The notes beneath the pieces were generated by a model. That model was not told the origin of the DNA and searched no databases. It was given only the letters and a program-made list of their open reading frames with translations. DNA of 64,000 nucleotides. Source: Escherichia phage p000v. The stretch's first letter is position 1, and each line of letters opens with the position of its first letter. A program made the position numbers and the translations under genes. Shown here piece by piece: positions 3,838 to 60,780 of this stretch. Where the stretch lies: sequence record NC_055781.1. One strand, 5' to 3'.

Positions 3838-5571
3838 TTACCCAATATCAATACGAGATCCGTCAACAGTGTATTGTCCTGAAGCTACTGAGCTCATTGT
3901 AGACATCGTTTCTGCCCAATCCCCGGCAACAGTCATATCAACATTACCATTAACAGTCCATTTAACGTTTCCGTTGACGGTGTAATCATGATTCCCTTCG
4001 ACCTGAGTTTTAGCATCACCTTTAACAAGAATATCTGCATTTCCGTCAACAACTATTTTGATATTACCCTTAACGTAAAGAGTTCCATCGCCTTCAACAG
4101 TTTTAGTTTGGTTACCACGAATAAAGATTGTGTCATTGCCGTCTATTTGATGGAGGCGATCTGCCATGTTATAATATATTTCATTAGCACCAACGTTAAC
4201 AAGCTTATCACCAGAAATCAAGAAGTTCCCATCGCCATTAGTGATGTCAAAAAGGTCTTCTACAGTTTTACGAGTACGACGCCCGGATGGAGAAACTTCC
4301 TCATATGACCCTGTTGGATGAACTAAGCGATAACGTTCATTACCTGGAGTGTCATCAAATTCTTGGATATGACCACTTTCTGTTTCCATAGCATGAACAT
4401 ATGGATACTCACCACGATAACTTGATTCCGGTTCTTTAAAAAGGATGCGTGAATCTAATGGAACAGGAGGACCGGCCGGGTCTTCTGAATCGGTATTTCT
4501 AGTAACTAAATCGGCACCAACTCCTGGTGAAGGTGGTGTTTTAACAGGAACACCGTACGATTCCATGTTACCAGTTAAAATAATTGTTGTTACGCGTGAA
4601 GCACGTCCTTTAGTCTGTTGGAACCATAATGAATCACGCCCGGATTTGTATGCAGTTTTCCAATCACCTGTGGCCATTGCTTTAAGCATAGTATTGAATT
4701 TTGCTACGCCACCAACGCCCATTTGGAAGCACATGTTTTCTAATGCCATTTGACGAGACCTGTTCATTTTAGCATAAACAGGACCTACTTTGGAATTAGA
4801 ACGAATGTCTTTCTGCATCTTAGCAAGGTCTTTCTCAAATAACGCTGTTGCTTCTTCTAATGTAATAGTTCCCGGATTTCCTGTTACTTCACGCCCTACT
4901 TGATCGGATAACAATTTATTAATTCGAGACATATCTCGGGTCTTTTCCATTACGATAAGGTGTCCAATACCTACTGTAGGATATCCGAGATGGTCCCAAT
5001 ACACTTTATCACGAAGTCCTTCGTCACGACGTAACATTTCCGTTATTGTAAAATTAGGGTCATCATCTTCTGGAATATTTGCTAAATCTGTATCGTCTGG
5101 GTTTATACCATAATCCAAGTTGTTATCTTGAATTACGTTAGAGTTTGAATAATAACCGGCTTCACCACCTTGGTTTAATACGTTAGTATCATTACCTAAA
5201 CGTCGTGGATATTGGCCTGTCGGGTCTGAAAAACCTTCAAGTCTATTAGGCTTTTCACGTACGATTCCGCCGTATGTACCAAGTACAATCCCGTTTGTTT
5301 TCCATTTGTCTAAGAAATGACCATATACTCGAGTTCCTTCAACAGGACCTGTAACAGAACCACCAATACCTGACATTGATGCGGACGTAATAGGTTGAAT
5401 AACAGTCATCCATGGAAGTTTTTCTGTAGGAATACCTTGCACATCACCTTGTGCTCTCTGTGCTGGATGAAGACCAACGACTCGAACTCGAACTCGCCCT
5501 TGTTTTAATGGGTCCATTCTGTCCTCGACAACACCCACGAACCAATTAAGGCTACTGCTAATCATTTCCAT
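3838..5571 (-). CDS. 5: baseplate hub / cell-puncturing protein gp5 with lysozyme domain
   Basis: 577 aa; T4-lysozyme-like segment (GIGHL...WFQQTKGRASRVTTIILTG) and C-terminal beta-helix repeats (VxGNxxxTV). Confidence 0.93.
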   Translation of the reverse strand: MEMISSSLNWFVGVVEDRMDPLKQGRVRVRVVGLHPAQRAQGDVQGIPTEKLPWMTVIQPITSASMSGIGGSVTGPVEGTRVYGHFLDKWKTNGIVLGTYGGIVREKPNRLEGFSDPTGQYPRRLGNDTNVLNQGGEAGYYSNSNVIQDNNLDYGINPDDTDLANIPEDDDPNFTITEMLRRDEGLRDKVYWDHLGYPTVGIGHLIVMEKTRDMSRINKLLSDQVGREVTGNPGTITLEEATALFEKDLAKMQKDIRSNSKVGPVYAKMNRSRQMALENMCFQMGVGGVAKFNTMLKAMATGDWKTAYKSGRDSLWFQQTKGRASRVTTIILTGNMESYGVPVKTPPSPGVGADLVTRNTDSEDPAGPPVPLDSRILFKEPESSYRGEYPYVHAMETESGHIQEFDDTPGNERYRLVHPTGSYEEVSPSGRRTRKTVEDLFDITNGDGNFLISGDKLVNVGANEIYYNMADRLHQIDGNDTIFIRGNQTKTVEGDGTLYVKGNIKIVVDGNADILVKGDAKTQVEGNHDYTVNGNVKWTVNGNVDMTVAGDWAETMSTMSSVASGQYTVDGSRIDIG

Positions 5572-10368: not shown

Positions 10369-10680
10369 ATGAAAACGTATCAAGAGTTTATCGCAGAAGC
10401 TACTAAAGCCGATAAAAATTTTATTATTAACACCACCGGTCCGTTAGATGATGAATACGCTAATGCTATTATTAAGTCAATTTCTAATCAAGGCGTTGAA
10501 GTAACAAATTTCGAATATAAGAAAAATGATACTTATATGGTAATTAGTATCAAAAAAGGTTCAAAGGCTAAAATTAAATCTGCATTTGGTGTTATGCGAG
10601 TCGACCAAATCGATAACCACGATTTTTCACAAACAGGGGTCAAACGCCAGAATACTATTTCATCTAAAGGCATAAAATAG
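10369..10680 (+). CDS. internal protein with capsid targeting sequence (IPI-locus protein)
   Basis: Starts MKTYQEFIAEA, the T4 internal-protein capsid-targeting leader; located next to 57B where T4 has ipI. Confidence 0.8.
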   Translation: MKTYQEFIAEATKADKNFIINTTGPLDDEYANAIIKSISNQGVEVTNFEYKKNDTYMVISIKKGSKAKIKSAFGVMRVDQIDNHDFSQTGVKRQNTISSKGIK

Positions 10681-12181: not shown

Positions 12182-12253
12182 GGCCCTGTAGCTCAATGGG
12201 AGAGCTGTCAGCTCATAACTGATAGGTAGCTGGATCGAAACCAGCCAGGGCCA
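12182..12253 (+). tRNA. tRNA with CAU anticodon (elongator Met or Ile2-type); CCA not encoded
   Basis: Hand-folded cloverleaf: acceptor GGCCCTG/CAGGGCC, D-stem GCTC/GAGC, anticodon stem GTCAG/CTGAT with loop CTCATAA, T-stem GCTGG/CCAGC; 1-72 pair is G-C so not an initiator. Confidence 0.8.
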
Positions 12254-12294
12254 TATTTTGGGAACATAAATACTCTTAGAAATAGGAGATATTT

Positions 12295-12963
12295 ATGTTC
12301 CATTACACTTATAAAATAACAAATAAAATTAATAATAAAATCTATATAGGCGCTCATTCTACCGAAAATTTAGATGATGGATATATGGGTTCTGGTAAAT
12401 TATTAAAAAGAGCCCAAGACAAGTATGGTATAGAAAATTTTAATAAAGAAATTTTAGAATTCTTTGACACTAAAGAGCAGATGTTTGAAGCCGAGAAAAA
12501 TATCGTAAACGAAGAATTTTTGAATCGTTCTGACGTATATAATTTAAAACTTGGTGGCGAAGGTGGTTGGGACCATTTAAATACTTACGAATTTAATTAT
12601 AAAAAGAAAGAAGCCTCTATTAAAGGAGCCAAAGCTTTTAAAGAGAGATTTGATTCTGATGAAGTGCTTCAAGAAAAATATCGTAAAATGGGTTCAGAGA
12701 AATTAAAGCATCTGTGGACTTTACCTGAATACAGAGAAAAATTCTCTAGCACTAAGTCGTTTTTAAATAAAAATCATACTTCCGAAACTATTGCTAAAAT
12801 GAAAGATACCCACGCCAGGAACAAACACCAACAAGGCGAGAAAAATTCCCAGTTTGGTACTATGTGGATTCATTCATTAGAAGAAAAGAAATCTAAGAAA
12901 ATTAAGAAAACCGATCCTATTCCGGAAGGTTGGATTAAAGGCTATAAACTAAAATTTAAGTGA
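12295..12963 (+). CDS. GIY-YIG homing endonuclease (SegB-like, tRNA region)
   Basis: YKITNKINNKIYIGAHS...GSGKL GIY-YIG motif; adjacent to tRNA as T4 segB. Confidence 0.85.
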   Translation: MFHYTYKITNKINNKIYIGAHSTENLDDGYMGSGKLLKRAQDKYGIENFNKEILEFFDTKEQMFEAEKNIVNEEFLNRSDVYNLKLGGEGGWDHLNTYEFNYKKKEASIKGAKAFKERFDSDEVLQEKYRKMGSEKLKHLWTLPEYREKFSSTKSFLNKNHTSETIAKMKDTHARNKHQQGEKNSQFGTMWIHSLEEKKSKKIKKTDPIPEGWIKGYKLKFK

Positions 12964-13648: not shown

Positions 13649-13656
13649 TATAAATA
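13649..13656 (+). promoter_or_regulatory. T4-type late promoter TATAAATA
   Basis: Exact TATAAATA 36 nt upstream of CTS protein gene at 13692. Confidence 0.6.
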
Positions 13657-13691
13657 TAGTAAACAATAAACCTACTTTCTAAGGACCATCG

Positions 13692-14318
13692 ATGTATACT
13701 TTTAATGAATTTTTAGCCGAAACGGAAGTAATCACCGAAGCCGGTGTACGTATGACAAAAGAGAAATGGCAAGCTGCTTACGATGCTATTTCTGGTACAA
13801 AAACTAGTACAGAGTTTTTCAAAAACGTTCAAGCCATGTACGGTATCGACACTTCCAGCCAAAAAGAATATTACAGAGCTTCTAAAGCATTCAAAGATAT
13901 TGTTAGTGGTGGTGTTTCTGCTAAATCTGGTTCGCCTAAAGTAAAACCTGCTCCTACCATTCCTAAACCTGCGACCCCTAAAGCAATAGCAAAACCTGAG
14001 CCTAAGCCTGAAGTAAAAGCAACTCCTAAAGCTCCTGCTCTTAAGTTTGATACTTCTAGCCTGGAAAAAAAATATAGACAACTATCTTCGCTTGTTCGTG
14101 ATATTGAATCCGATACATCTTCACTCGTTCGTGAATTCAATAGTCTTCGTAATGGCCAACATATCAACAACCTTGATACCCCAGACCTTTATCGTCTTTA
14201 TTTGACTATCGAAGGTTTGAAGTATACTCAACCACTTCATGATGAGATTAAAGAAAAACTTCGACAAGCAGGTCGTTTGGCTGCTGACGCTGCTCAGTAT
14301 GCAAAAACTCGTAAGTAA
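13692..14318 (+). CDS. capsid-targeted protein (CTS-like leader MYTFNEFLAE) with Pro/Lys-rich linker
   Basis: N-terminus resembles internal-protein leader; PKxKPAPTIPKPATPK repeat region; late promoter upstream. Confidence 0.7.
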   Translation: MYTFNEFLAETEVITEAGVRMTKEKWQAAYDAISGTKTSTEFFKNVQAMYGIDTSSQKEYYRASKAFKDIVSGGVSAKSGSPKVKPAPTIPKPATPKAIAKPEPKPEVKATPKAPALKFDTSSLEKKYRQLSSLVRDIESDTSSLVREFNSLRNGQHINNLDTPDLYRLYLTIEGLKYTQPLHDEIKEKLRQAGRLAADAAQYAKTRK

Positions 14319-20840: not shown

Positions 20841-21073
20841 GTATAGCAATTTACATTAAATCAGAATCATGCGATAGTTATCTGTACACGTATGATAAAG
20901 ATGTGTCAGAAGAAAAAATCAAAGACGATCTTAATATGGACCTTGATATGTTCTGTCCTATTGCAGATTACAAACTTGCGGTCTCTAATAGTGAAAGTCC
21001 ATCTAAAGAAACGCGTATTGAAGAATTTATGTCCGAATTAATGGCCAAATCATGGGACCGAGATGATGAGTAA
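20837..21073 (+). CDS. hypothetical acidic protein
   Basis: Start at ATG 20837 overlapping upstream stop (ATGA); 78 aa. Confidence 0.5.
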   Translation: MSIAIYIKSESCDSYLYTYDKDVSEEKIKDDLNMDLDMFCPIADYKLAVSNSESPSKETRIEEFMSELMAKSWDRDDE

Positions 21074-21521
21074 GAAAAATAAAGTGAAAGAACTATCAGC
21101 CGGTATTATCTTCATGACAAAAGATAAAGAATTATTCATGGGACGTGTAACTGGTTCTCGTCCTAAAGGTTCTTTAGCTCATCGGTGGGATATTCCTAAA
21201 GGACGTGTCGAGCCCGGTGAATCGCCTATTGAAGCTGCTATTCGTGAATGCGAAGAAGAAACTGGGTTTACACAATATGACCCTGCCTTCCTGAAAGACC
21301 TAGGTGAACATCATTACTCAGACAATAAGAATATTCATCTGTTCCTATATACCATCCCTGTAGAGCACGAGCAATTCAGAAACAGTGTTTGTAATTCCTA
21401 TCATACATTCCAAGACGGACGACAGATTCCTGAATTTGATGCATTCGCTTTAATTAAACCTTCTCAATGGGAATATGTGATGGGCAAATCATTATATAAG
21501 GTGCTCACTACCATCCTATAA
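21063..21521 (+). CDS. nudE: Nudix hydrolase NudE
   Basis: Nudix box GRVEPGESPIEAAIRECEEETG; located just upstream of e as T4 nudE (e.1). Confidence 0.88.
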   Translation: MMSKKNKVKELSAGIIFMTKDKELFMGRVTGSRPKGSLAHRWDIPKGRVEPGESPIEAAIRECEEETGFTQYDPAFLKDLGEHHYSDNKNIHLFLYTIPVEHEQFRNSVCNSYHTFQDGRQIPEFDAFALIKPSQWEYVMGKSLYKVLTTIL

Positions 21522-21555: not shown

Positions 21556-22044
21556 ATGAATATATTTGAAATGCTTCGTAATGACGAAGGTCTTAGACTG
21601 ACTTTATACAAAGACACCGAAGGCTTTTGGACGATTGGCATAGGCCATTTGGTAACAAAGAACCCGTCTTTAGCCGTAGCTAAAGCTGAACTTGACAGAA
21701 TGATCGGTCGTAAATGCAACGGCACAATTACCCTTGATGAGGCTGAAAAGCTATTTAATGAAGACGTTGATAAAGCCGTTCGTGGAATCTTGGGTAATGC
21801 TAAACTTAAACCAGTGTATGATTCTTTAGACGCGGTTCGTCGATGTGCATTAGTCAATATGGTCTTCCAAATGGGTGTAGCAGGCGTCGCAGGTTTTACT
21901 AATTCTCTTCGTATGCTTCAACAGAAACGTTGGGATGAAGCGGCAGTAAATCTAGCCCAATCTAAATGGTATCGTCAGACACCTAATCGCGCGAAACGCG
22001 TAATCTCAACATTTAAAACAGGAACTTGGAAAGCGTATATATGA
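21556..22044 (+). CDS. e: endolysin (T4 lysozyme E)
   Basis: [32 protein letters not shown]...; near-colinear with T4 lysozyme; start ATG 21556 with GGGAGG SD. Confidence 0.95.
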
Positions 22045-22322
22045 AAACATATAGTGAATTTTTATCAGAATCTATTCTTAACGAAGCTACCGACACATTT
22101 GCAACTAAGCTAGGTGCAGCTTTGGTTGAAGCGGAAAGTCTATTAGCACGTATTTCTGAACTTGCCAGTAAGATAGATACTCGCAAATTTGAACGTACCA
22201 GTGATATCGTTAAGCTTGAAGCCTTGTTGCGTATGTGCGATAAACCGGAAGAAATCGCTAAGAACGGCTCGTTAATGAAACAACGTCTTGAAAAATATAT
22301 TTCAGGCGCTTCAGAAAAATAG
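22041..22322 (+). CDS. capsid-targeted internal protein (CTS leader [10 protein letters not shown])
   Basis: ATG overlaps e stop (ATGA); N-terminal leader matches internal-protein CTS. Confidence 0.7.
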
Positions 22323-22323
22323 T

Positions 22324-22377
22324 GTTTACTTCCTCCAAGGACTTTGATACTATACATTCATCAACTACTTGGAGGAA
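22324..22377 (+). promoter_or_regulatory. early-type promoter embedded in RBS-sequestering hairpin upstream of denV
   Basis: GTTTAC then 10-bp TTCCTCCAAG pairing with CTTGGAGGAA (the denV SD); TACTAT -10 lies in the loop. Confidence 0.6.
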
Positions 22378-22380
22378 ATT

Positions 22381-22794
22381 ATGACTCGTATCAATTTAAC
22401 ACTTGTTTCTGAACTGACCGACCAACATCTTATGGCTGAGTATCGTGAATTACCACGCGTATTTGGTGCAGTCCGTAAACATGTTCAAAATGGTAAACGT
22501 GTAAAGGATTTTAAAATCTCTCCAACATTTATCTTAGGCACAGGTCACGTAACATTCTTTTACGACAAACTTGAATTTTTACGTTTACGTCAAATCGAGC
22601 TAATCGTGGAATGTTTAAAACGCGGTTTCAAAATCAAGGACACGACAGTCCAGGATATTTCCGACATTCCTGTAGAATTTCGTAATAATTATGTCCCGTC
22701 CGAAGCGTCCATTGCGATAAGTCAAGCACGCTTAGATGAAAAAATTGCTCAACGTCCGACTTGGTACAAATACTATGGTAAATCAATTTACTAA
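22381..22794 (+). CDS. denV: endonuclease V (pyrimidine dimer DNA glycosylase)
   Basis: [34 protein letters not shown]...; near-colinear with T4 endonuclease V. Confidence 0.95.
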
Positions 22795-22806
22795 GGAAAA
22801 ACGAAA

Positions 22807-23061
22807 ATGTATCAAGAATTTACCGCTGAAGCAGATGCCAAAGGCCCAAAGTTTAAAGTTAAAGCTTTCATTGGTGATGCGGAAGACTTTGGCTCATTAA
22901 AATGTAATGGGTATTCTTTCTTAGGTGGCGATGGTAAAGAAATCAACACCTATGCAAAACGTAGTGAAATTGCTTATGTTGTAGCAAGTCCTAAAGTAGA
23001 TGTTGACGATATTGAATACGATTTTAACAACTTCGGAATTATTTCTGGCGGTAAAGCTTAA
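22807..23061 (+). CDS. capsid-targeted internal protein (CTS variant MYQEFTAEA)
   Basis: 84 aa; leader related to MKTYQEFIAE. Confidence 0.65.
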   Translation: MYQEFTAEADAKGPKFKVKAFIGDAEDFGSLKCNGYSFLGGDGKEINTYAKRSEIAYVVASPKVDVDDIEYDFNNFGIISGGKA

Positions 23062-23065
23062 AATT

Positions 23066-23095
23066 GTTTACGCTTAAGTATTAATATGGTATAAT
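23066..23095 (+). promoter_or_regulatory. early-type promoter (GTTTAC / TATAAT)
   Basis: 18-bp spacer; followed by CTATCAAAAC motif common to cassettes. Confidence 0.6.
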
Positions 23096-23125
23096 TACTC
23101 TATCAAAACAAACAAGGAAACAAAA

Positions 23126-23440
23126 ATGAAAACGTATAAAGAATTTATTGCAGAATCCGCCAACCAACGCGTTGAAGGTGGTTATATTTGGATTGAACAA
23201 GTTGAGCCACCGAGCCGCACTTCTACAGGTAAATGGAAAATTACCGTTGATGGTCCTGGTGGTAAACGTAGGACTCTTAAAGAAATTAACGGGTACTATG
23301 AAGAAGCTCTTTCGGATGCAGGAACTTACATGATGCAAATCATGATTAAAAACCCTGAAAACCGTTTTGCAGCTAAAGTCTTCCGCCGCATCGGTAATAA
23401 ACTTTATGATGCATACTCTAAAAACTTCCCTAAAGAATAA
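23126..23440 (+). CDS. internal protein (IPII-position, CTS leader MKTYKEFIAE)
   Basis: 104 aa basic protein with canonical CTS; position after denV as T4 ipII. Confidence 0.8.
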   Translation: MKTYKEFIAESANQRVEGGYIWIEQVEPPSRTSTGKWKITVDGPGGKRRTLKEINGYYEEALSDAGTYMMQIMIKNPENRFAAKVFRRIGNKLYDAYSKNFPKE

Positions 23441-23465
23441 CATAAATTAAAACAATAGGAACAAA

Positions 23466-24044
23466 ATGAAAACTTATAAAGAATTTATCGCCGAGGCCTT
23501 TGCAGGAAAAGCTCAAGGCATTAATAAGGACGAGTGGAATTATCGTGGCGGAAACGGCTTTGACCCTAAAACTGCTCCACTTGAACGATATCTAGCCACA
23601 AAAGCTTCTGATTTTAAAGCATTCGCTTGGGAAGGACTTCGCTGGCGTAACGATCTAAATATTGAAGTTGACGGACTCAAATTTGCTCATATTGAAGATG
23701 TTGTTGCTAGTAACTTAGATGCAGCTTTTGTTAAAGCCGACAGCGACCTTCGTCGCTGGAATTTAAAACTGTTCTCTAAACAAAAAGGCCCGAAGTTTGT
23801 GCCTAAAGCAGGTAAATGGGTTATTGATAATAAATTGGCTAAAGCTGTCAACTACGCTGGGCTTGAATTTGCCAAGCATAAATCATCATGGAAAGGTCTT
23901 GATGCAATGACTTTCCGTAAAGAATTTGCCGATGTTATGGCTAAAGGCGGCTTTAAGGCAGAAATAGATACCTCTAAAGGTACGTTTAAAGACGCTAATG
24001 TTCAGTACGCTTACGCCGTTGCTAATGCAGCCCGTGGTAATTAA
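23466..24044 (+). CDS. internal protein (IPIII-position, CTS leader MKTYKEFIAEA)
   Basis: 192 aa with canonical CTS; size and position as T4 ipIII. Confidence 0.8.
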   Translation: MKTYKEFIAEAFAGKAQGINKDEWNYRGGNGFDPKTAPLERYLATKASDFKAFAWEGLRWRNDLNIEVDGLKFAHIEDVVASNLDAAFVKADSDLRRWNLKLFSKQKGPKFVPKAGKWVIDNKLAKAVNYAGLEFAKHKSSWKGLDAMTFRKEFADVMAKGGFKAEIDTSKGTFKDANVQYAYAVANAARGN

Positions 24045-24046
24045 TA

Positions 24047-24068
24047 AGGCCTAAGTATAGGCCTATTT
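24047..24068 (+). terminator. terminator-like hairpin
   Basis: AGGCCT-aagtat-AGGCCT hairpin followed by ATTT. Confidence 0.45.
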
Positions 24069-24222
24069 ACATTTAAATAAAATGGGAACAACCTGGACCT
24101 CATGATTCTATGAGGGATTCCCGCCAACCTGTAATAAGGTCGAGCCCAAGTGCGGTAATGGGTAAATACAGAAATGGACAATTCATGCGCCACGGAATGG
24201 CCCAAACCTTAAGAGAAATAAT

Positions 24223-24762
24223 ATGAGAACATTTTTAACTGGACCTTATCTATCCCTGATGAATGCTTTTACACACCATTCTGATGCTAGAGTAGAAGAA
24301 ATTTGTAAGAACGGTTATATCCCACCGTTTGAAGACGTACTCAAGCAGTACTGTACACTTCGTTTAGACGGCGGCCGACAATCAGGTAAATCAATTGCTG
24401 TGACTAACTTTGCTGCTAATTGGCTGTATGATGGTGGAACAGTTATTGTTCTTTCTAATACTTCAGCTTATGCTAAAATTTCTGCTGGCAACATTGAAAA
24501 AGAATTTTCTCGTTATTCTAGCGACGATATTCGATTCCGTTTATTTACTGATTCTGTCCGTAGTTTTATTGGCAATGAAGGTTCTAAATTCCGTGGATTA
24601 ACGCTTTCTCGTATTCTGTACATAATTGACGAGCCTATTAAAGCTCCTGATATGGATAAGATTTACGACATACATATTAAAACAGTCCAACACTGTTGCA
24701 AAAGCAAATATTGCAACGGCGGTAATGCTCGTCCTCAATTTTTTGTGATTGGAATGCAATGA
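24223..24762 (+). CDS. P-loop NTPase-like protein
   Basis: Walker A-like GGRQSGKS and Walker B-like LYIIDE; 179 aa. Confidence 0.6.
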   Translation: MRTFLTGPYLSLMNAFTHHSDARVEEICKNGYIPPFEDVLKQYCTLRLDGGRQSGKSIAVTNFAANWLYDGGTVIVLSNTSAYAKISAGNIEKEFSRYSSDDIRFRLFTDSVRSFIGNEGSKFRGLTLSRILYIIDEPIKAPDMDKIYDIHIKTVQHCCKSKYCNGGNARPQFFVIGMQ

Positions 24763-25067
24763 TGACCACTATTGAAGTTTTTGAGTATTGTTATAACAGC
24801 TCAGTATGCAATAAAAGGGCTCTTGTAGAAAATTACGAGATTTACCATTTTAAACCTAAACGATATCGTTTGACTAAAGGTCCGTTCGCAGGGCAGCAGG
24901 TTCTTTGTACTGCTCCTAATGCACGACTGATGACTAGTATTCCGCATTTCAAAATGGAATTTATTGATGGACCATTTAAGGGATTAATCACTCAAAGTTT
25001 AATGGCGTTTAATTCTGACCCATTTTTGATTAAAGAAAAAACTTGGATAAATTTATTTTCTAATTGA
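24759..25067 (+). CDS. hypothetical protein
   Basis: 102-aa ORF overlapping upstream stop. Confidence 0.55.
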   Translation: MMTTIEVFEYCYNSSVCNKRALVENYEIYHFKPKRYRLTKGPFAGQQVLCTAPNARLMTSIPHFKMEFIDGPFKGLITQSLMAFNSDPFLIKEKTWINLFSN

Positions 25068-25073
25068 GGTTAT

Positions 25074-25436
25074 ATGAAAGCATATCAAATTCTTGAAGGT
25101 GTACATAAAGGCACTATTTATTTTGAAGACGGTACTCAAGCCCGGATTATTGTCTCTAAGACTTTTAAAGAAGACACTATTGTAGACCCTGAAATTTTCT
25201 ACGGTTTGAATGCCCGTGAAATTGAAATTGAACATCAACCTAAAGTTAAAATTGAAGGTGGTCAACATTTGAACGTTAACGTTCTGCGTCGTGAAACTCT
25301 GGAAGATGCAGTTAAGCATCCGGAAAAATATCCGCAGCTGACCATCCGTGTATCCGGTTATGCAGTTCGCTTTAACTCTCTGACTCCAGAACAGCAACGC
25401 GACGTTATCGCTCGTACCTTTACTGAGAGCCTATAA
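25074..25436 (+). CDS. grcA: autonomous glycyl radical cofactor (GrcA/YfiD-like)
   Basis: C-terminal 60 residues ([59 protein letters not shown]) match E. coli GrcA/PflB glycyl-radical tail as recalled. Confidence 0.9.
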
Positions 25437-53643: not shown

Positions 53644-56355
53644 ATGAAAGAATTTTACTTAACGGTTGAACAGATTGGTGATTCAATTTTTGAACGTTAC
53701 ATCGATTCTAATGGCCGTGAACGTACTCGTGAAGTAGAATATAAACCATCACTGTTTGCTCATTGTCCGGAAAGTCAGGCTACGAAATATTTTGATATCT
53801 ACGGTAAGCCGTGTACTCGTAAACTATTCGCTAACATGCGTGATGCGTCTCAATGGATTAAACGCATGGAAGATATCGGACTTGAAGCACTTGGCATGGA
53901 CGATTTCAAATTAGCGTATTTGTCTGACACTTATAACTATGAAATCAAATACGACCATACAAAAATTCGTGTGGCTAACTTCGACATCGAAGTAACATCT
54001 CCGGATGGGTTCCCTGAGCCGTCACAAGCAAAACATCCTATTGATGCTATCACCCATTATGACTCAATTGACGACAGGTTCTACGTATTTGATCTATTGA
54101 ATTCTCCATATGGTAATGTAGAAGAATGGTCTATTGAAATCGCTGCTAAGCTTCAAGAACAAGGTGGTGATGAAGTTCCATCTGAAATTATCGATAAAAT
54201 CATTTATATGCCGTTCGATAACGAAAAAGAATTGTTGATGGAATATCTCAACTTCTGGCAACAGAAAACTCCTGTCATTTTGACTGGATGGAACGTTGAG
54301 TCATTTGATATTCCATATGTGTATAACAGAATCAAGAATATTTTTGGCGAATCTACTGCGAAACGTTTATCACCACATCGTAAAACTCGTGTTAAAGTTA
54401 TCGAAAACATGTATGGTTCTCGTGAAATCATTACATTGTTCGGTATCTCTGTTCTTGATTACATTGACCTTTACAAAAAATTCTCTTTTACCAATCAACC
54501 GTCGTATTCTCTGGATTACATTTCAGAATTTGAATTGAACGTTGGTAAACTGAAATATGACGGCCCTATTTCTAAGCTTCGTGAAAGCAATCACCAACGA
54601 TATATTTCTTATAACATCATCGACGTGTATCGTGTATTGCAAATTGATGCTAAGCGCCAGTTCATCAACTTGAGTTTGGACATGGGTTATTATGCTAAGA
54701 TACAGATTCAATCTGTGTTCAGCCCAATTAAAACATGGGATGCTATTATTTTTAATAGCCTTAAAGAGCAGAACAAGGTGATTCCACAAGGTCGTTCTCA
54801 CCCGGTTCAACCTTATCCTGGCGCTTTTGTTAAGGAACCTATTCCAAATCGATACAAATATGTAATGAGTTTCGACCTTACATCTCTGTATCCAAGTATT
54901 ATTCGCCAAGTGAATATTAGCCCAGAAACAATAGCAGGAACGTTTAAAGTAGCTCCATTGCATGATTATATTAACGCAATCGCTGAACGTCCTTCAGATG
55001 TGTACAGCTGCTCTCCTAATGGCATGATGTATTATAAAGACCGTGATGGTGTAGTTCCAACTGAAATCACTAAGGTCTTTAATCAACGTAAAGAACATAA
55101 AGGTTACATGCTTGCAGCTCAACGTAATGGTGAAATAATTAAAGAGGCATTGCATAATCCTAATCTTTCTGTTGACGAACCATTAGATGTTGATTATCGT
55201 TTCGACTTCACTGATGAGATTAAAGAAAAGATTAAAAAGTTGTCTGCTAAATCTCTTAATGAAATGTTGTTCAGAGCTCAACGTACTGAAGTTGCAGGTA
55301 TGACTGCACAAATTAACCGTAAATTGCTTATCAACTCACTTTATGGTGCACTTGGAAACGTTTGGTTCCGTTATTACGATTTGCGTAATGCAACTGCAAT
55401 CACAACATTTGGTCAAATGGCTTTACAGTGGATTGAACGTAAAGTTAATGAATATCTGAATGAAGTTTGTGGTACAGAAGGTGAAGCTTTCGTTCTTTAT
55501 GGTGATACAGACTCTATTTACGTATCTGCAGATAAAATTATTGATAAGGTTGGTGAATCTAAATTCCGTGATACCAACCATTGGGTGGACTTTTTAGATA
55601 AGTTTGCACGTGAACGTATGGAACCGGCTATTGATAGAGGTTTCCGTGAAATGTGTGAATACATGAACAATAAACAACACTTAATGTTCATGGACCGAGA
55701 AGCTATCGCTGGTCCTCCGCTCGGTTCTAAAGGTATTGGTGGATTCTGGACTGGTAAGAAACGTTATGCATTAAACGTGTGGGATATGGAAGGTACTCGT
55801 TACGCTGAGCCTAAACTCAAAATCATGGGTCTAGAGACTCAGAAATCTTCGACCCCTAAAGCAGTACAGAAAGCTCTTAAAGAATGTATTCGTCGTATGC
55901 TTCAAGAAGGTGAAGAATCATTACAAGAATATTTTAAAGAGTTTGAAAAAGAATTCCGTCAATTGAATTATATTAGCATCGCGTCGGTATCTTCTGCGAA
56001 TAACATTGCTAAATATGACGTTGGTGGATTCCCTGGTCCTAAATGCCCGTTCCATATTCGTGGAATTCTGACATATAACAGAGCTATCAAAGGTAATATT
56101 GATGCTCCACAAGTTGTAGAAGGCGAAAAGGTATACGTTCTGCCTTTACGTGATGGAAACCCGTTCGGTGATAAATGTATCGCATGGCCTTCTGGTACTG
56201 AAATCACAGATTTAATTAAAGACGACGTACTTCATTGGATGGACTACACTGTTCTCCTTGAGAAGACATTTATTAAACCACTTGAAGGATTCACATCAGC
56301 AGCGAAACTCGATTACGAGAAGAAAGCATCTCTGTTCGATATGTTCGATTTTTGA
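53644..56355 (+). CDS. 43: DNA polymerase gp43
   Basis: 903 aa; B-family motifs (DIEV exo, SLYPS, KKRYA, YGDTDS); length as recalled for RB69-type polymerase. Confidence 0.97.
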   Translation: MKEFYLTVEQIGDSIFERYIDSNGRERTREVEYKPSLFAHCPESQATKYFDIYGKPCTRKLFANMRDASQWIKRMEDIGLEALGMDDFKLAYLSDTYNYEIKYDHTKIRVANFDIEVTSPDGFPEPSQAKHPIDAITHYDSIDDRFYVFDLLNSPYGNVEEWSIEIAAKLQEQGGDEVPSEIIDKIIYMPFDNEKELLMEYLNFWQQKTPVILTGWNVESFDIPYVYNRIKNIFGESTAKRLSPHRKTRVKVIENMYGSREIITLFGISVLDYIDLYKKFSFTNQPSYSLDYISEFELNVGKLKYDGPISKLRESNHQRYISYNIIDVYRVLQIDAKRQFINLSLDMGYYAKIQIQSVFSPIKTWDAIIFNSLKEQNKVIPQGRSHPVQPYPGAFVKEPIPNRYKYVMSFDLTSLYPSIIRQVNISPETIAGTFKVAPLHDYINAIAERPSDVYSCSPNGMMYYKDRDGVVPTEITKVFNQRKEHKGYMLAAQRNGEIIKEALHNPNLSVDEPLDVDYRFDFTDEIKEKIKKLSAKSLNEMLFRAQRTEVAGMTAQINRKLLINSLYGALGNVWFRYYDLRNATAITTFGQMALQWIERKVNEYLNEVCGTEGEAFVLYGDTDSIYVSADKIIDKVGESKFRDTNHWVDFLDKFARERMEPAIDRGFREMCEYMNNKQHLMFMDREAIAGPPLGSKGIGGFWTGKKRYALNVWDMEGTRYAEPKLKIMGLETQKSSTPKAVQKALKECIRRMLQEGEESLQEYFKEFEKEFRQLNYISIASVSSANNIAKYDVGGFPGPKCPFHIRGILTYNRAIKGNIDAPQVVEGEKVYVLPLRDGNPFGDKCIAWPSGTEITDLIKDDVLHWMDYTVLLEKTFIKPLEGFTSAAKLDYEKKASLFDMFDF

Positions 56356-56395: not shown

Positions 56396-57031
56396 ATGAA
56401 AACTACACCAATCACTATCGCTATTGACGCAATCGTAAAACAAGCTTCATCTCTTGCCACTATGGCTAAAGTAATTAGTCAAAACTCTGCCCGATATAAT
56501 GCTATTCTTGAAACTCTTCGTCGCCCTGGACTGAGTAATTATGAAAGCCGAGTAATTATTACAGGTGTTGGTAAGAACGCTAATATCGCAACTAAAGCTT
56601 CCGAGACTTTTGCTTCACTAGGTATTCCTAGCATGTATTTGAACACCGGGCATTATTCTCATGGCGACGCAGGATTTATTGCACCTAATGATGTATTAGT
56701 TCACATCAGTCGTTCTGGTAAGACTGAAGAAATGATAGGTGTTGCTAAACATCTTCGTATGATTCGTCCTCAGGTTAAACAGATTCTGTTACATTGTAAC
56801 CCTGACATTCCGCAAGAATACGAAGCTCTTTTTGATTATACGTTCTGTACAGGCATCGCGGTAGAGGTTGATGAGAATTCTCTGGCTCCGACCATGTCCA
56901 CTACATTGTTGTTAGCGCTTATCGATACGTTTGCTATCAACCTTTCGTCTGAACGTGGATTTACCTCTAATGACTTCCTTAAGTTCCACCCTGGTGGTGC
57001 ACTAGGTGCCATGTTACGAGGCGAACAATGA
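56396..57031 (+). CDS. SIS-domain sugar-phosphate isomerase (KdsD/GutQ-like, no CBS domains)
   Basis: VIITGVGKNANIATKASETFASLGIPS, HGDAGF, ISRSGKTEE, HPGGALGAM motifs parallel arabinose-5-phosphate isomerase SIS domain. Confidence 0.8.
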   Translation: MKTTPITIAIDAIVKQASSLATMAKVISQNSARYNAILETLRRPGLSNYESRVIITGVGKNANIATKASETFASLGIPSMYLNTGHYSHGDAGFIAPNDVLVHISRSGKTEEMIGVAKHLRMIRPQVKQILLHCNPDIPQEYEALFDYTFCTGIAVEVDENSLAPTMSTTLLLALIDTFAINLSSERGFTSNDFLKFHPGGALGAMLRGEQ

Positions 57032-57171
57032 AAGCAATAACAATAGGACTTTTACTATTGATGCTTGTCATGACTATCTACTGGAGCTTAACGGCTCCAG
57101 TAATGATTCCGACTCTTATAATCGGATGGATTATGATTGGACTACAAGCAAAGTATGAATGCTTTAACTAG
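57028..57171 (+). CDS. small membrane peptide (47 aa)
   Basis: Not in track; ATGA-coupled to SIS gene; two hydrophobic segments; position recalls T4 imm. Confidence 0.4.
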   Translation: MKAITIGLLLLMLVMTIYWSLTAPVMIPTLIIGWIMIGLQAKYECFN

Positions 57172-57212
57172 AATAGTGTACAATACACCTACTTACCAAT
57201 GAGGACTTCAAC

Positions 57213-58898
57213 ATGAAAAAAGCTGTTATTCTTGGTGCTGGACTGGCAACTCGTTTGTATCCAATAACGCACCATATTCCTAAGGTGCTTGTTAACTATA
57301 AACAAGACACTATTCTGAGCAATTTGTATACAATTTATTCTGACCTTGGCGCAGATGAAATTATTGTAGTAGTTCATTCAAAATTTGCTGAAACTGTTCG
57401 AGCTTATTGCGAGCAAGAAGGGTTCAATGTGACTATTCGTACAGTTGATGAAGCGTATGGTTCTGCTTATGCTCTTGCTAAATTATACAAAGATTTAGAT
57501 GGCCATAACGTAATTGTTAACTGGTGTGATATTATTCCTGACTTTGGTTCATGGTCTTGGAATGTTAACGCAATCTATGTTAAGGGTGATGAATGTCGAT
57601 ATAATTTCGATGGTGAAAATATCACTAACGTAGGTTCAACAGGTGGTAATGTTGTAGGAATTTATCAGTTCAAAGACTGGGAATTCTACATGGGTTCTAC
57701 TGATGAGGAAATTCACGAATACTGCAAAGGTCGTGATTTCGTAGAATTCCTTTACGGCAGTGCATTCAATAAATCAGAGCTTATGAATCTAATTGATTTA
57801 GGTGATATGCCTAAACTTGAAAAGGCTCATGAAGTTCGTGAACTGAATCGTAGTTTTAATGCAGTTGAAATTGGCGAAGAAACTGTAACTAAATTCGCGT
57901 TAACCGAACAAGGTCGAGCTCTTCAAAAAGATGAGATTTCATGGTATTTGAAAGTGAAATCAGATTCAGTTCCTCAGTTAGTTTCGGTAAATGAAAATAA
58001 TTTTGAAATGGAACGTATTAAAGGTAAGCCGGCATTTGAATATATTAAATCCAAATCAAGTCTTGCTCGTCCACAAATTGTTGATGCAATTTTAGATGCA
58101 CTGAAATTCAGCACGGACACTTATTTTGTAAGTCCTGAAACTGTTCGCCGTGATTTCACTAAAGAGTTCTATACGAAAGTTATTGATCGTTGTGAAAGCA
58201 TTCAGCCATTGATTGATTCATTTGGTAAAATCACACGTGTGAACTACACTAAGATTGGACGTCTGAAGCCAATGTTGAAACAAGCTTTAGAACATCTTAT
58301 TCGTTATCATAACCGTTCTCAGGGACAGTACTCTGTTATTCATGGTGACCCGAACTTCAGTAATACTATGATTACCGATAACGGCGAAGTCAAGTTTATC
58401 GACCCTCGTGGATATTTTGGTGAAACCAAGATTTACGGGCCAAAATTGTATGATGAAGCTAAAGTGCTTTATGCTGTTTCAGGTTATGATGAATTCAATG
58501 CTAATCCGACCTGGGGTCAGTTTACTATTGATGAAACAACTTGTAATGTGACTATTAACATCAATCCATTAGTTTACAAATATGGAAAGATGAGTTCGTT
58601 TAACGAGTATCATCATTTGGCAGTAGCAATTATCTGGATTGCATTAGGTGGTTATTTCAAGAATAATCCACTTAAAGCGGTTGCCGCATATTATAAAGGT
58701 ATGGAACTTCTGACTAAGCAATTACGTAACATGGGCCGTGTACTTCAAGACGGCTCTATTAGTTATGACGTAGCAGAACCTGTAACGGCTACTCTGATTA
58801 CAAAAAATCCTGGTAAATGGGTACTAACTGATAAAGAAACTGGTGTTTCCTATCGTCCAATCGGCGGCGATATCACTCATCAATGGGAACGAATCTAA
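57213..58898 (+). CDS. bifunctional sugar-1-phosphate nucleotidyltransferase / APH-like sugar kinase
   Basis: N-terminal ILGAGLATRLYPIT (RmlA/GalU-type); C-terminal HGDPNFSNTMI...VKFIDPRG (aminoglycoside/choline-kinase fold); 561 aa. Confidence 0.8.
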   Translation: MKKAVILGAGLATRLYPITHHIPKVLVNYKQDTILSNLYTIYSDLGADEIIVVVHSKFAETVRAYCEQEGFNVTIRTVDEAYGSAYALAKLYKDLDGHNVIVNWCDIIPDFGSWSWNVNAIYVKGDECRYNFDGENITNVGSTGGNVVGIYQFKDWEFYMGSTDEEIHEYCKGRDFVEFLYGSAFNKSELMNLIDLGDMPKLEKAHEVRELNRSFNAVEIGEETVTKFALTEQGRALQKDEISWYLKVKSDSVPQLVSVNENNFEMERIKGKPAFEYIKSKSSLARPQIVDAILDALKFSTDTYFVSPETVRRDFTKEFYTKVIDRCESIQPLIDSFGKITRVNYTKIGRLKPMLKQALEHLIRYHNRSQGQYSVIHGDPNFSNTMITDNGEVKFIDPRGYFGETKIYGPKLYDEAKVLYAVSGYDEFNANPTWGQFTIDETTCNVTININPLVYKYGKMSSFNEYHHLAVAIIWIALGGYFKNNPLKAVAAYYKGMELLTKQLRNMGRVLQDGSISYDVAEPVTATLITKNPGKWVLTDKETGVSYRPIGGDITHQWERI

Positions 58899-59284
58899 TG
58901 CACCGTGTAGAAAACATGCTTAATCTTTGTTTTGATGTCGATGATTGTATAACAGAGTGGAATAACAATCGTGATTACGTGAACTTCAAACCAGACGTCG
59001 AAATGGTGTCTGCCATTAATGCCCTGTATGATGCAGGGCATACCATAACGCTTTACACTGCCCGTGGTATGAAGTCGGTAGGTCCTGGTCGTATAGCAAT
59101 TGACATTCTCCCAAGTCTGATTCAGAACTTGGAAAACATTGGTTTGAAGTACCATAATTTGCTAACACATAAACCAGTATATGATTGGATTATCGACGAC
59201 AAAGCTATGCGTCCTGACGAATTCAAAGCTCTTATGAATAAAGGCGAATTCGAAACATTTAAATCATATAAACCAAATCTATAA
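58898..59284 (+). CDS. HAD-superfamily phosphatase-like protein
   Basis: N-terminal FDVDDCIT (DxD motif I) and later K...DD; start taken at ATG overlapping upstream stop (TAATG). Confidence 0.55.
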   Translation: MHRVENMLNLCFDVDDCITEWNNNRDYVNFKPDVEMVSAINALYDAGHTITLYTARGMKSVGPGRIAIDILPSLIQNLENIGLKYHNLLTHKPVYDWIIDDKAMRPDEFKALMNKGEFETFKSYKPNL

Positions 59285-59341
59285 TAATTTAAGTAAGACC
59301 TGCAAAAACCATCGCATCAATTAACGCGAGATGCAAAAAAA

Positions 59342-60502
59342 ATGAATACTTTTAAAATCGGAACGAATTTTGATTTAGCTCTTCTTGATAAAATCGTAGA
59401 GCTCAATAAAACCTATCCTAATAGCTTGATAAACGAAGTATATGGCTCTACAAGAGAAATGGCTTTTGTAGCAGCCAGACCTGATTTTAGGCTTCCTGAC
59501 GTTGACAAAAAGATGTTAGAAGACTACGTTAAACGTTGTAACGAATTAGGTATTTGCTTTAACTATACACTCAACACGATAAATCCTGGTTCAAAAAGAG
59601 AACTAGTTGAGTGGAAGAAGAAAGCTATTCAGGATTATGTTCAGTATCTTTGGTCAATAGGCGTATGGCGTATTACTATCGCTAACCCTGTTGTTATGGA
59701 AATTGTTCGTGAAGTCAATAAAGATATTGAGATTGAAGTTTCAACAATTCTACATGTCGATGCGGTAACTCAAATCAAATACTTACATGACCAATATAAC
59801 ATCAAAAAGGTCTGTTGCGGAATTCATAAGAACCGTTCAGTTTCTTTCCTGAAGCGTGCAGCAGAGTTTTGCAATAAGAACAATATAATATTTGAAGTTC
59901 TTGTAAATGAGTTCTGTTCTAATGCTGGTAAAGGGTATACAACACATTGTAGTTATCGTGACTCTTGCTATATTTTCCATAGTACTGATGTTACCGCTGA
60001 TGATGCTAAATCCTTAAATGGATATCCTATGCAGCACTGTATTAAAGCTCGTGATACAGACCCATTTAACTGGTTGAGAACTCGTTTTGTTCGTCCTCAA
60101 GATTTGAAACTTTATAATGATATTGGTATCACTCAATTCAAAGTTTCAGGACGTACAGGTAGCACAGACTACATTTTGAAAGTTCTTGAAGCATACGCTT
60201 CTGAAAAGTTTGAAGGTAATTTGTTAGAACTGTGGAAGCCTTTAGAGACTATTTTCACTCTTGAAAATGAGACTGAGTTTTCACATACAGTAAATATTGA
60301 AACCTCTTTGTTAGATGGCTTTTTAGAAAAAAGGTGGTTCAGACATCCAGATTTTGATTGTGCTAATGAAATCTGTGGGTCAACGTGTACATATTGTGAA
60401 AGGTATTATAAACGTCAATTATCTAAAAACGGGTTAGCAGAAAACTCCATATCTATTATTGATATAACTAACTCTGATGACGCTTTGAGGTACCCGGAAT
60501 GA
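59342..60502 (+). CDS. Cys-rich protein, possible peptidase-U32-like Fe-S enzyme
   Basis: EVLVNEFCSNAGKGYTTHCSYRDSCYIF and C-terminal CANEICGSTCTYC clusters; resemblance to U32 signature is partial. Confidence 0.6.
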   Translation: MNTFKIGTNFDLALLDKIVELNKTYPNSLINEVYGSTREMAFVAARPDFRLPDVDKKMLEDYVKRCNELGICFNYTLNTINPGSKRELVEWKKKAIQDYVQYLWSIGVWRITIANPVVMEIVREVNKDIEIEVSTILHVDAVTQIKYLHDQYNIKKVCCGIHKNRSVSFLKRAAEFCNKNNIIFEVLVNEFCSNAGKGYTTHCSYRDSCYIFHSTDVTADDAKSLNGYPMQHCIKARDTDPFNWLRTRFVRPQDLKLYNDIGITQFKVSGRTGSTDYILKVLEAYASEKFEGNLLELWKPLETIFTLENETEFSHTVNIETSLLDGFLEKRWFRHPDFDCANEICGSTCTYCERYYKRQLSKNGLAENSISIIDITNSDDALRYPE

Positions 60503-60738
60503 TTTCTAGAAAAAGTTTTAATTATAAACTTAACGAAGAGATTTTGACTATGAAACTGAACACTAACGAACAAATTCTTAAAAAGGCCCTTATGGGCCTG
60601 TTTGAAACCAAAGCGGCTAAAGTGATTAAAGAACCTGTTCAATTGGAATACTACGCTGATGCATTTCTTCATAGTGTTCTTGGAAGTATCGATGCTGAAG
60701 CTTTACGTTATATCAACATTGTCAAGAAATTCAAATAA
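60499..60738 (+). CDS. hypothetical protein
   Basis: 79-aa ORF, ATGA-coupled. Confidence 0.5.
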   Translation: MISRKSFNYKLNEEILTMKLNTNEQILKKALMGLFETKAAKVIKEPVQLEYYADAFLHSVLGSIDAEALRYINIVKKFK

Positions 60739-60780
60739 GCTTTACGAATTGAGTATATAATAAATTGTATTGAGGTAAAC

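Follow-up and report, generated by a model that had tools for sequence, protein, structure and literature searches.

Internal head protein genes of T4 and non-T4 families at the polymorphic e-to-vs.8 locus of an RB69-like phage

The four leader-bearing open reading frames (ORFs) clustered around denV in an RB69-like Mosigvirus are, in our reading, true internal protein (IP) genes of the T-even type, situated in the polymorphic e-to-vs.8 locus, and their products would be delivered into the host and act there as proposed below; we put the probability of this reading at roughly 70%. The stretch of phage DNA that we analysed (the window, 64 kb) was 97% identical to phage Bas46 across the IP region. 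The four ORFs start at 22041, 22807, 23126 and 23466 on the plus strand, where the first-pass annotation had placed them, and are called IP-A to IP-D here. All of them lie between gene e (21556-22044) and vs.8 (24223-24762). Gene e, the upstream border of the internal-protein locus, is a plus-strand ORF for a T4-type lysozyme, named endolysin e in the annotations of Bas46, RB69 and T4. The plus-strand gene denV (22381-22794) encodes the pyrimidine-dimer glycosylase endonuclease V (phrog_1183, E = 1e-61; Pfam Pyr_excise). It does not belong to the internal protein genes but lies within the cassette array, between the first and second IP ORFs.

Translated in six frames, the 64-kb window contained five matches to the strict leader motif M(KT)?Y.EF..E, where 200 second-order Markov simulations gave a mean of 0.0; the fifth match was at 10369. 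A relaxed leader scan returned seven matches, of which six were true ORF N-termini (10369, 13692, 22041, 22807, 23126 and 23466) and one was internal to gene 46. Leader-coding DNA (30 nt) was 63-90% identical between IP genes, while identity over the next 60 nt fell to 17-38%, which is background. Chance or an ORF artefact as the source of the four leader ORFs was ruled out by the motif statistics together with conservation.

The leader is sufficient for packaging, with residues 4 and 7 as targeting and residues 8 and 10 as processing determinants (PMC9026906), and the L/I-x-E cleavage motif of the prohead protease gp21 was taken from the same source. The full set of targeting determinants (an aromatic residue 4 and Phe at residue 7) was present in IP-A, IP-C and IP-D, and these three of the four ORFs carried an L/I-x-E site at residues 8-10 (LSE in IP-A, IAE in both IP-C and IP-D). 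None of the four contained a Pfam domain. Families were assigned with PHROGs, tblastn against annotated phages and pairwise BLAST against T4; the word-indexed protein search was shallow, with 3, 10 and 20 matches. The clustering of four leader ORFs around denV, as first described, was borne out by coordinates, leaders and motif count, the leader of IP-B being truncated, and the identification of the ORFs as capsid-targeting-sequence genes was upheld by the leaders, the PHROGs and annotated relatives.

IP-A (22041-22322, plus strand, 93 aa) fell in phrog_3499, 'internal head protein' (E = 1e-46). Its ATG overlaps the stop codon of gene e (ATGA); IP-A lacks a separate promoter, and its translation is coupled to that of gene e. 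The leader ends in LSE followed by S, and a second site, LNE, is followed by A. The protein was found at 99% identity or more in 131 phage records, its positional homologue in VR25 is annotated ip5, and an exhaustive HMMER search among 1.84 billion proteins gave just 4 representative clusters. Identity to Ip5 of T2, PP01 and wV7 was 48-51% over 84 of 93 residues (E = 1e-13 to 2e-17), and identity to bas37_0261 of Bas37 was 47.6%. With Ip5 of T2, T6 and PP01 it shares helical character and a similar length as well as this level of identity. However, Ip5 of those phages adjoins 57B (the ipI locus) whereas IP-A lies between e and denV, and Tequatrovirus Ip5 has ATE or TKT at residues 8-10 with a later site, ITE before S, whereas IP-A retains the canonical LSE. 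Judged by these alignments, IP-A is a divergent Ip5 member at a different locus. The mature parts of IP-A (pI about 6.3) and IP-B (pI about 4.9) are not basic, unlike those of classical IPs, and this counts against our preferred reading.

IP-B (22801-23061, plus strand; 84 aa from 22807) belongs to the RB69ORF125c family of internal head proteins (phrog_2667, phrog_35655) and was 92-96% identical to the copies in RB69, phage 132 and HMD-9, where an 'internal head protein' of the RB69ORF125c type occupies the same position after denV. This type is distantly related to Ip7, both being within phrog_2667. The leader in the window is truncated to MYQEFTAE followed by A, so that the Tyr and Phe are kept and the first two residues are gone. 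All 16 homologues start two codons upstream, with MK(M/T)YQEFIxE, at the place where the ancestral ATG (22801) reads ACG in the window. The window copy also has Thr for Ile8 at P3 of the gp21 site (22822-22824) and Cys for Arg35 at an invariant position, and all three departures, which are specific to the window, affect columns at which 13 homologues and 3 IMG/VR contigs agree without exception. TAE stands in place of the L/I-x-E site and no such site occurs anywhere in the protein, while I-x-E was present in 16/16 homologues; the exact leader variant was not found in IMG/VR. The AF2 model (pLDDT 78.5) showed a beta-alpha-beta-beta-alpha-beta order, and a fold search with it matched nothing known, inhibitors included.

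Processing of IP-B is doubtful because the canonical L/I-x-E protease site is missing, and its sequence suggests that in this phage IP-B is probably poorly processed or may be decaying. At a little under even odds, we consider that it is no longer a functional internal protein, either as a decaying cassette or because its product is mistargeted or misprocessed. The three changes at unanimous columns point this way, as do the status of residue 8 as a processing determinant (PMC9026906), the existence of short remnants of the gene in PhAPEC2, JS09 and HEMP5, and the comparison with the closest relative, phage 132, which differs at only one other position. However, the frame is open through 84 codons, the new ATG has a Shine-Dalgarno sequence (AAGGA) at workable spacing, the Tyr and Phe targeting residues are retained, and three changes are too few for statistics and may be accounted for by sequencing error. 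As a natural leader-defective allele, the gene could serve to probe the rules of targeting and processing.

IP-C (23126-23440, plus strand, 104 aa; leader MKTYKEFIAE followed by S) was 96% identical to the PP01 'Ip10 internal head protein', although its PHROG (phrog_3966) is listed as 'unknown function'. It was found at 99% identity or more in 62 records, at 72% identity in SP18 and VR25 Ip10, and at 53-57% in Karamvirus and Kanagawavirus phages. Ip10 as annotated in PP01, SP18, VR25 and JK36 occupies the same e-to-vs.8 locus without material difference, and IP-C is the same gene. An alignment of seven sequences from five genera (Mosigvirus, Tequatrovirus, Gaprivervirus, Karamvirus and Kanagawavirus) contained 44 invariant columns. 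Such conservation across five genera suits a fixed (for example structural) role better than a fast arms race. The mature part has a pI of about 9.6. The AF2 model of Ip10 (pLDDT 84, pTM 0.76), searched with Foldseek against BFVD, retrieved its own orthologue only and matched no known inhibitor.

IP-D (23466-24044, plus strand, 192 aa; leader MKTYKEFIAE followed by A) is the IpIII orthologue (phrog_5341, E = 4e-117), with 91% identity to T4 IpIII over the full 192 aa (E = 2e-134), a mature pI of about 9.6 and homologues in 259 phage records. PDB sequence searches with IpIII, an Ip10 profile and IP-A returned nothing below E = 0.7. T4 IpIII (Ip3) inhibits GmrS1/GmrSD2, a type IV restriction system of E. 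coli ECOR17 that consists of two genes. It is needed on ECOR17, and the leaderless form works when expressed in the host (PMC9391042). IP-D presumably keeps the ECOR17-type GmrSD target, a function established for the T4 allele only.

Two promoters serve the locus. A T4 early-type sigma-70 promoter (GTTTAC-18 nt-TACTAT; 22324-22353, plus strand) precedes denV and IP-B, and the same GTTTAC...TA..TAT layout occurs upstream of T4 denV, ipI, ipII and ipIII. A strong sigma-70/T4 early-type promoter (TTTACG-17-TATAAT with an upstream TG; 23067-23095, plus strand) precedes IP-C and IP-D; with 10/12 matches it was the top promoter-like site in 20.8-24.8 kb. The IP-C/IP-D transcription unit is ended by an intrinsic-terminator-like hairpin, AGGCCTAAGTATAGGCCT, with a T-rich tail (24047-24064, plus strand). 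The T4 late promoter TATAAATA was not found before the four IP genes within 20.5-25.5 kb, which is normal because T4 ip genes also use early-type promoters. The spacer at 24045-24222 gave no Rfam match and a fold z-score of -0.93 when examined as a structured RNA, and a small ORF there is disfavoured by an indel that separates variants.

The two remaining N-terminal leader matches, outside the locus, belong to further genes. IP-E (10369-10680, plus strand, 103 aa; MKTYQEFIAE followed by A) is of the Ip7 family (phrog_2667, E = 2e-38), with 66% identity to the T2 'Ip7 internal head protein', and lies at the classical ipI locus directly 3' of 57B behind its own GTTTAC...TACTAT promoter. The other, at 13692-14318, is a candidate sixth leader gene (13649-14318, plus strand, with its promoter; phrog_2280, 'unknown function'), and the late promoter TATAAATA was found upstream of it at 13649-13656. 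It encodes 208 aa with the N-terminus MYTFNEFLAE followed by T, a second site, ITE before A, and a central Pro/Lys/Ala-rich linker. The N-terminal pattern M..[YFV].[ED][FI][LI].E was present in 16/16 family members (the window and 15 homologues), MKTYNEFLNE being the Dhakavirus form, and an ATAAATA motif lay 33-44 nt upstream in 16/16. Among the 25 records listed, the family is called 'hypothetical protein' wherever annotated, and the gene is a candidate for an unannotated leader-bearing protein family.

The first-pass annotation read the locus as T4 ipII and ipIII with two additional members. Only IP-D proved to be a T4 orthologue. No ipII homologue was found in the window, T4 IpII matches being limited to residues 1-14 (E = 3e-4 to 0.16); the relative phi25-307 does have a true ipII (93%). 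By sequence, the other three are Ip5-like, RB69ORF125c-like and Ip10, all non-T4 families. The gene order is e-ipIII-ipII-denV in T4 and e-Ip5like-denV-IPB-Ip10-IpIII in the window.

Nor are these members new, since public genomes hold IP-A and IP-C at 99% identity or more and IP-B at 92-96%. The 2.8-kb region is covered to 80% or more in at least 63 records, and RefSeq/GenBank already label several of the non-T4 copies internal head protein or Ip10. The finding holds but is unremarkable, because the genes are present, and mostly annotated, in dozens of RB69-like phages, and the four flagged genes add no new family. Different IP combinations occupy the same locus in T4, PP01, RB69, phi25-307, PhAPEC2, NicPhage, VR25, STP4-a and phage 132. 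The comparison with related phages for presence and absence, which had been proposed as a check, showed a patchy distribution: NicPhage is without Ip10 and IpIII, PP01 is without IpIII and denV at the e-to-vs.8 locus, and in PhAPEC2 IP-B is reduced to a remnant.

In the preferred reading, a capsid-targeting sequence of about 10 residues would dock each protein onto the gp22 scaffolding core during prohead assembly, and gp21 would then cut the leader off after L/I-x-E. The mature protein would be retained in the head in up to a few hundred copies, would be ejected into the cell together with the DNA, and would act ahead of any phage gene expression. The IPs would most likely act stoichiometrically, inhibiting the modification-dependent (type IV) restriction enzymes for which the sugar-modified cytosines of these phages are targets. 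The presence of gp21 and gp22 in this phage rests on relatives because their genes are outside the window, which spans roughly genes 3/1/57 through 43/42; both are core genes of T4 relatives (PMC9026906). Our literature search found no virion proteomics for the four proteins in RB69-like phages.

That such proteins are injected anti-defence effectors stands as the leading hypothesis for the class, but it is not a new one: it is in print and tested for Ip1-3 (PMC12373910). Of the T4 proteins Ip1, Ip2 and Ip3, each blocks its own GmrSD variant among the type IV restriction enzymes, and ip4-ip10, an ip10 included, gave no reproducible target against 15 GmrSD groups (PMC12373910). Leader-bearing bas37_0260 inhibits McrBC (bioRxiv 10.1101/2025.11.20.689424). 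By analogy, IP-A, IP-B and IP-C may have comparable restriction targets.

The negative ip4-10 screen is also consistent with packaged proteins that serve the virion itself, as scaffold-core accessory or DNA-condensing proteins that would aid assembly of the head or offset the charge of the DNA and whose injection is incidental. Such a role fits the basic character of mature Ip10, IpIII and Ip7-like proteins (pI 9.5-9.6, net charge +4.5 to +9) and the 44 invariant Ip10 columns. In T4, moreover, polyheads build up in IpIII-minus and triple-IP mutants, and IPs are purified together with gp22 (PMC9026906). We nevertheless think it improbable, as the IP genes are non-essential and patchily distributed (NicPhage, PP01, PhAPEC2), IP-A and IP-B range from neutral to acidic, each of the three T4 IPs, like bas37_0260, proved to be a restriction inhibitor, and leaderless IpIII works from the host (PMC9391042).

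We rate it as still less probable that the proteins, once injected, act on something other than restriction enzymes, either by aiding host takeover at the level of transcription, translation, the nucleoid or the envelope or by countering non-nuclease defences. Alt offers an analogue, since this packaged, gp21-processed ADP-ribosyltransferase acts on host RNA polymerase (PMC9026906), and Alt contributes to Mokosh evasion; the same negative screen can be read in this direction. The HIDEN-SEQ tables show that insertions in bas37_0261, the Ip5 homologue of Bas37 with 47.6% identity to IP-A, were depleted on the uropathogen CFT073 relative to K-12 (log2 fold change -2.09, adjusted p printed as 0.00000), with no target assigned. 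However, this signal may be polar because the neighbouring 57B was also depleted. Pfam, PDB sequence and fold searches showed no enzymatic domain, the processed size of 76-94 residues is typical of stoichiometric binders, and every IP of known function blocks a type IV restriction enzyme.

Returning to restriction inhibition, a more specific proposal concerns the DNA chemistry. In Mosigvirus the DNA is arabinosylated, and the GmrSD-family enzymes BrxU, CT596 and UTI89 cleave it (PMC13390438, PMC6024577), and the window carries the arabinosylation cluster, with arabinose-5-phosphate isomerase-like, U32 and thymidylate-synthase-like genes. We tentatively propose, as possible but on the unlikely side, that the Ip5-like, RB69ORF125c-like, Ip10 and phrog_2280 (13692) proteins are injected inhibitors of arabinosylated-cytosine-sensing or non-GmrSD first-response defences (McrBC-like, on the model of bas37_0260), with phrog_2280 as an unrecognised late-expressed IP family. 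The published ip4-10 screen was blind to such targets, as its phages were T-even phages with glucosyl-hmC DNA and its enzymes were confined to GmrSD (PMC12373910). The IPs known so far to inhibit type IV restriction are three T4 IPs and one Bas37 IP; the arabinosylated Mosigviruses have their own IP repertoire. Because internal proteins act before phage gene expression, they help to determine which hosts can be infected by T4-like phages, a group in wide use for therapy.

T4 IpIII and IP-D are alike in the 10-residue leader type, the IAE site followed by A and the basic character. They differ in setting: T4 IpIII lies between e and ipII, whereas IP-D follows denV and Ip10, 25 nt 3' of Ip10 and without its own promoter, and T4 has glucosyl-hmC DNA whereas the phage of IP-D has arabinosylated DNA. 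T4 IPI*, the GmrSD-CT596 inhibitor, and bas37_0260, the McrBC inhibitor, follow the same delivery logic of leader, gp21 processing and co-injection and serve as the model of mechanism for the class. However, only their leaders align with the window proteins, no homologue of the mature parts being found there, and an Ip7-family gene stands in place of ipI at the ipI locus of the window. The Dar head proteins of phage P1 are also head-internal, injected and anti-restriction, but they are unrelated proteins with unrelated packaging signals that act against type I restriction, so the likeness to T4-type IPs is one of analogy only (PMC12810830).

The window comes from an RB69-like T-even phage of the genus Mosigvirus. 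The 2.8 kb around four internal protein (IP) genes showed 97.2% identity to Escherichia phage ChristianSchoenbein (Bas46), and at least 80% of this region was covered in 63 phage records. All genes of the locus lie on the + strand, in the order nudE (21063-21521), lysozyme e (21556-22044), IP-A (22041-22322), denV (22381-22794), IP-B (22807-23061), IP-C (23126-23440) and IP-D (23466-24044), followed by a terminator hairpin (24047-24064, +), vs.8 (24223-24762), vs.7 (24759-25067) and vs.6/grcA (25074-25436). Upstream of vs.8, about 150 nt of GC-rich non-coding DNA (24065-24222) is kept among Mosigviruses whatever IP cassette precedes it. This spacer has two sequence variants in its 5' part and an almost invariant core (CCAACCTGTAATAAGGTCGAGCCCAAGTGCGGTAATGGGT...GCCACGGAATGGCCC); as a structured RNA it gave no Rfam match and a fold z-score of only -0.93, and an indel speaks against a small ORF. 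Rfam found a single tRNA gene in the window (12182-12253), against eight in the corresponding region of T4; a 222-aa ORF directly 3' of it (stretch 12182-12963, +) looks GIY-YIG/segB-like by eye.

The first-pass annotation had placed a T4 capsid-targeting leader at the N-terminus of all four ORFs, and motif statistics and leader-DNA identity bore this out. Six-frame translation of the window gave five matches to the strict leader motif, compared with a mean of 0.0 in 200 second-order Markov simulations; a relaxed scan gave seven, six of them true ORF N-termini on the + strand. The leader of IP-D reads MKTYKEFIAE. Identity between the IP genes was 63-90% over the 30 leader-coding nucleotides and fell to background over the next 60. 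The four-gene feature is genuine, and its assignment to the T4-type internal proteins was right.

The comparison with T4, namely ipII and ipIII plus two extra members, was wrong in detail, because IpIII was found together with three non-T4 families, ipII was absent and the order around denV differed. IP-D is the T4 IpIII orthologue (91% identity over the full length; phrog_5341), with homologues in 259 phage records. T4 IpII aligned with the window proteins over the leader alone. IP-C is Ip10, with 96% identity to the PP01 gene annotated 'Ip10 internal head protein', at least 99% identity in 62 records and 53-57% in Karamvirus and Kanagawavirus phages. IP-A showed at least 99% identity in 131 records and 48-51% to Ip5 of T2, PP01 and wV7, and its positional homologue in VR25 was named ip5 by the authors of that genome. 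IP-B belongs to the RB69ORF125c family (RefSeq label 'internal head protein'), distant kin of Ip7. A fifth leader gene (10369-10680, +), of the Ip7 family (MKTYQEFIAE|A; 66% identity to T2 Ip7), fills the classical ipI locus downstream of 57B; the window phage has no IPI homologue, though one was reported for RB69. The relative phi25-307 carries a true ipII and one further leader gene between ipIII and vs.8. That extra ORF (4503-4832 of comparison record L002) and RB69ORF123c (1950-2279 of L005) both fall in phrog_3966, as does Ip10, and some Mosigviruses therefore have two divergent paralogues of the Ip10 family.

In T4, an early-type GTTTAC-N17/18-TA..TAT promoter, not the late TATAAATA type, lies upstream of each of ipI, ipII, ipIII and denV. 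Matching promoters were found in the window upstream of denV (22324-22353), IP-C (23067-23095, the best sigma-70 match of the region) and the Ip7-like gene. The IP-A start overlaps the e stop codon (ATGA), the gaps from denV to IP-B and from IP-C to IP-D are 12 and 25 nt, and the transcription unit ends at the terminator at 24047-24064.

The IP-B copy departs from its family in the leader itself. The homologues (13, and three IMG/VR contigs) start MK(M/T)YQEFIxE. In the window, the stretch 22801-22824 has the ancestral first ATG changed to ACG and Ile8, P3 of the site for the prohead protease gp21, changed to Thr, and at 22903-22905 the invariant Arg of a K/M-R-N-G-Y motif is Cys. Only at these columns does the window break the unanimity of the 16 aligned homologues, and the exact variant was not found in IMG/VR. 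Since leader residue 8 is a processing determinant (PMC9026906) and the gene is cut down to remnants in PhAPEC2, JS09 and HEMP5, these three losses make it probable that the copy is decaying or poorly processed, though its reading frame is intact. Bas46 (L001 2737-3063 against window 22736-23061) has one extra G right after the denV stop (ctaaggg vs ctaagg); the 109-aa ORF that its annotation shows overlapping denV, in place of the 86-aa IP-B gene, probably reflects an artefact of annotation.

For packaging into the prohead core, residues 1-10 of IpIII are enough; leader residues 4 and 7 serve targeting, and 8 and 10 serve gp21 cleavage after L/I-x-E (PMC9026906). Each head contains about 300 copies of every IP, which are ejected along with the DNA (PMC9026906). 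Ip1 inhibits GmrSD of strain CT596. T4 needs IpIII on ECOR17, and the protein still acts in the cytoplasm when the leader is missing (PMC9391042). Ip2 and Ip3 each inhibit one distinct GmrSD system without cross-protection (PMC12373910). A further leader protein, from phage Bas37, inhibits McrBC (bioRxiv 10.1101/2025.11.20.689424). A screen of ip4-ip10 with 15 GmrSD groups, which used glucosyl-hmC phages, yielded no reproducible hit.

The window carries the Mosigvirus cytosine-arabinosylation gene set. This neighbourhood (56396-62396, +), downstream of DNA polymerase (53644-56355), includes, all on the + strand, an arabinose-5-phosphate isomerase-like gene (56396-57031), a gene of the U32 'peptidase' family (59342-60502), a homologue of gene 42 that is thymidylate-synthase-like (60781-61497) and two ORFs for proteins of unknown type, one of 561 aa (57213-58898) and one of 299 aa (61497-62396). 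In Mosigvirus DNA, both mono- and di-arabinosylated cytosines occur. BrxU, of the GmrSD family, cleaves this DNA, and the CT596 and UTI89 GmrSD enzymes restrict RB69 DNA (PMC13390438, PMC6024577).

Given the known T4 and Bas37 activities and GmrSD-family cleavage of Mosigvirus DNA, the four IPs would most likely be injected with the DNA as stoichiometric inhibitors of type IV restriction, a role suggested for IP-D by orthology; for IP-A, IP-B and IP-C we infer it as the most likely one. In their mature form, Ip10 and IpIII are basic (pI 9.6), unlike IP-A (pI 6.3) and IP-B (pI 4.9). Pfam returned no domain for the four proteins, and PDB sequence searches with IpIII, an Ip10 profile and IP-A returned no relative. 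A search of 1.84 billion proteins gave only four representative clusters for the IP-A family. An alignment of Ip10 from five genera has 44 invariant columns; this conservation exceeds expectation for a fast arms-race gene, and Ip10 may have a structural role. The Bas37 Ip5 homologue (L017, MZ501089, 1364-1621) is 47.6% identical to IP-A. In the HIDEN-SEQ data (Extended Data Table 7, sheet S3), its transposon insertions are significantly depleted on uropathogenic CFT073 relative to K-12 (log2 fold change -2.09; adjusted p printed as 0.00000); the adjoining 57B is likewise depleted (-1.56), so polarity is possible.

A sixth candidate is the 208-aa ORF at 13692-14318 (+; phrog_2280, 'unknown function'), with MYTFNEFLAE|T at its N-terminus, ITE|A as a second site and a Pro/Lys/Ala-rich central linker. 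A canonical late promoter, TATAAATA (13649-13656), preceded by a terminator-like hairpin, lies 36 nt upstream. The window copy and the 15 homologues examined, 16 family members in all, share a leader-like N-terminus, MKTYNEFLNE in the Dhakavirus copies, and an ATAAATA motif 33-44 nt upstream. In the records listed, every annotated copy is labelled 'hypothetical protein'. The family makes a plausible candidate for a gp21-processed internal or head protein that has gone unrecognised.

In annotated relatives, IP combinations vary between the same flanks. From e to vs.8, T4 has e, ipIII, ipII and denV; PP01 has e, ip10 and ipIV, with no denV; RB69 has e, an Ip5-like gene, denV, ORF125c, ORF124c (Ip10) and ORF123c; NicPhage has e, an Ip5-like gene, denV and only IP-B; PhAPEC2 has an IP-B remnant, then IpIII; VR25 has ip5, denV, ip10, an IP-B-like gene and ip7; and the Tequatrovirus phage 132 has IP-A, denV, IP-B, IpIII and IpII. 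This locus is a known cassette array, and ip polymorphism with a common leader has been on record from 1994 onwards (Repoila et al., cited in PMC12373910). The four genes, the way they are arranged and the hypothesis of an anti-defence role are already known; existing annotation is extended only by the IP-B allele with its defective leader and by the phrog_2280 candidate.
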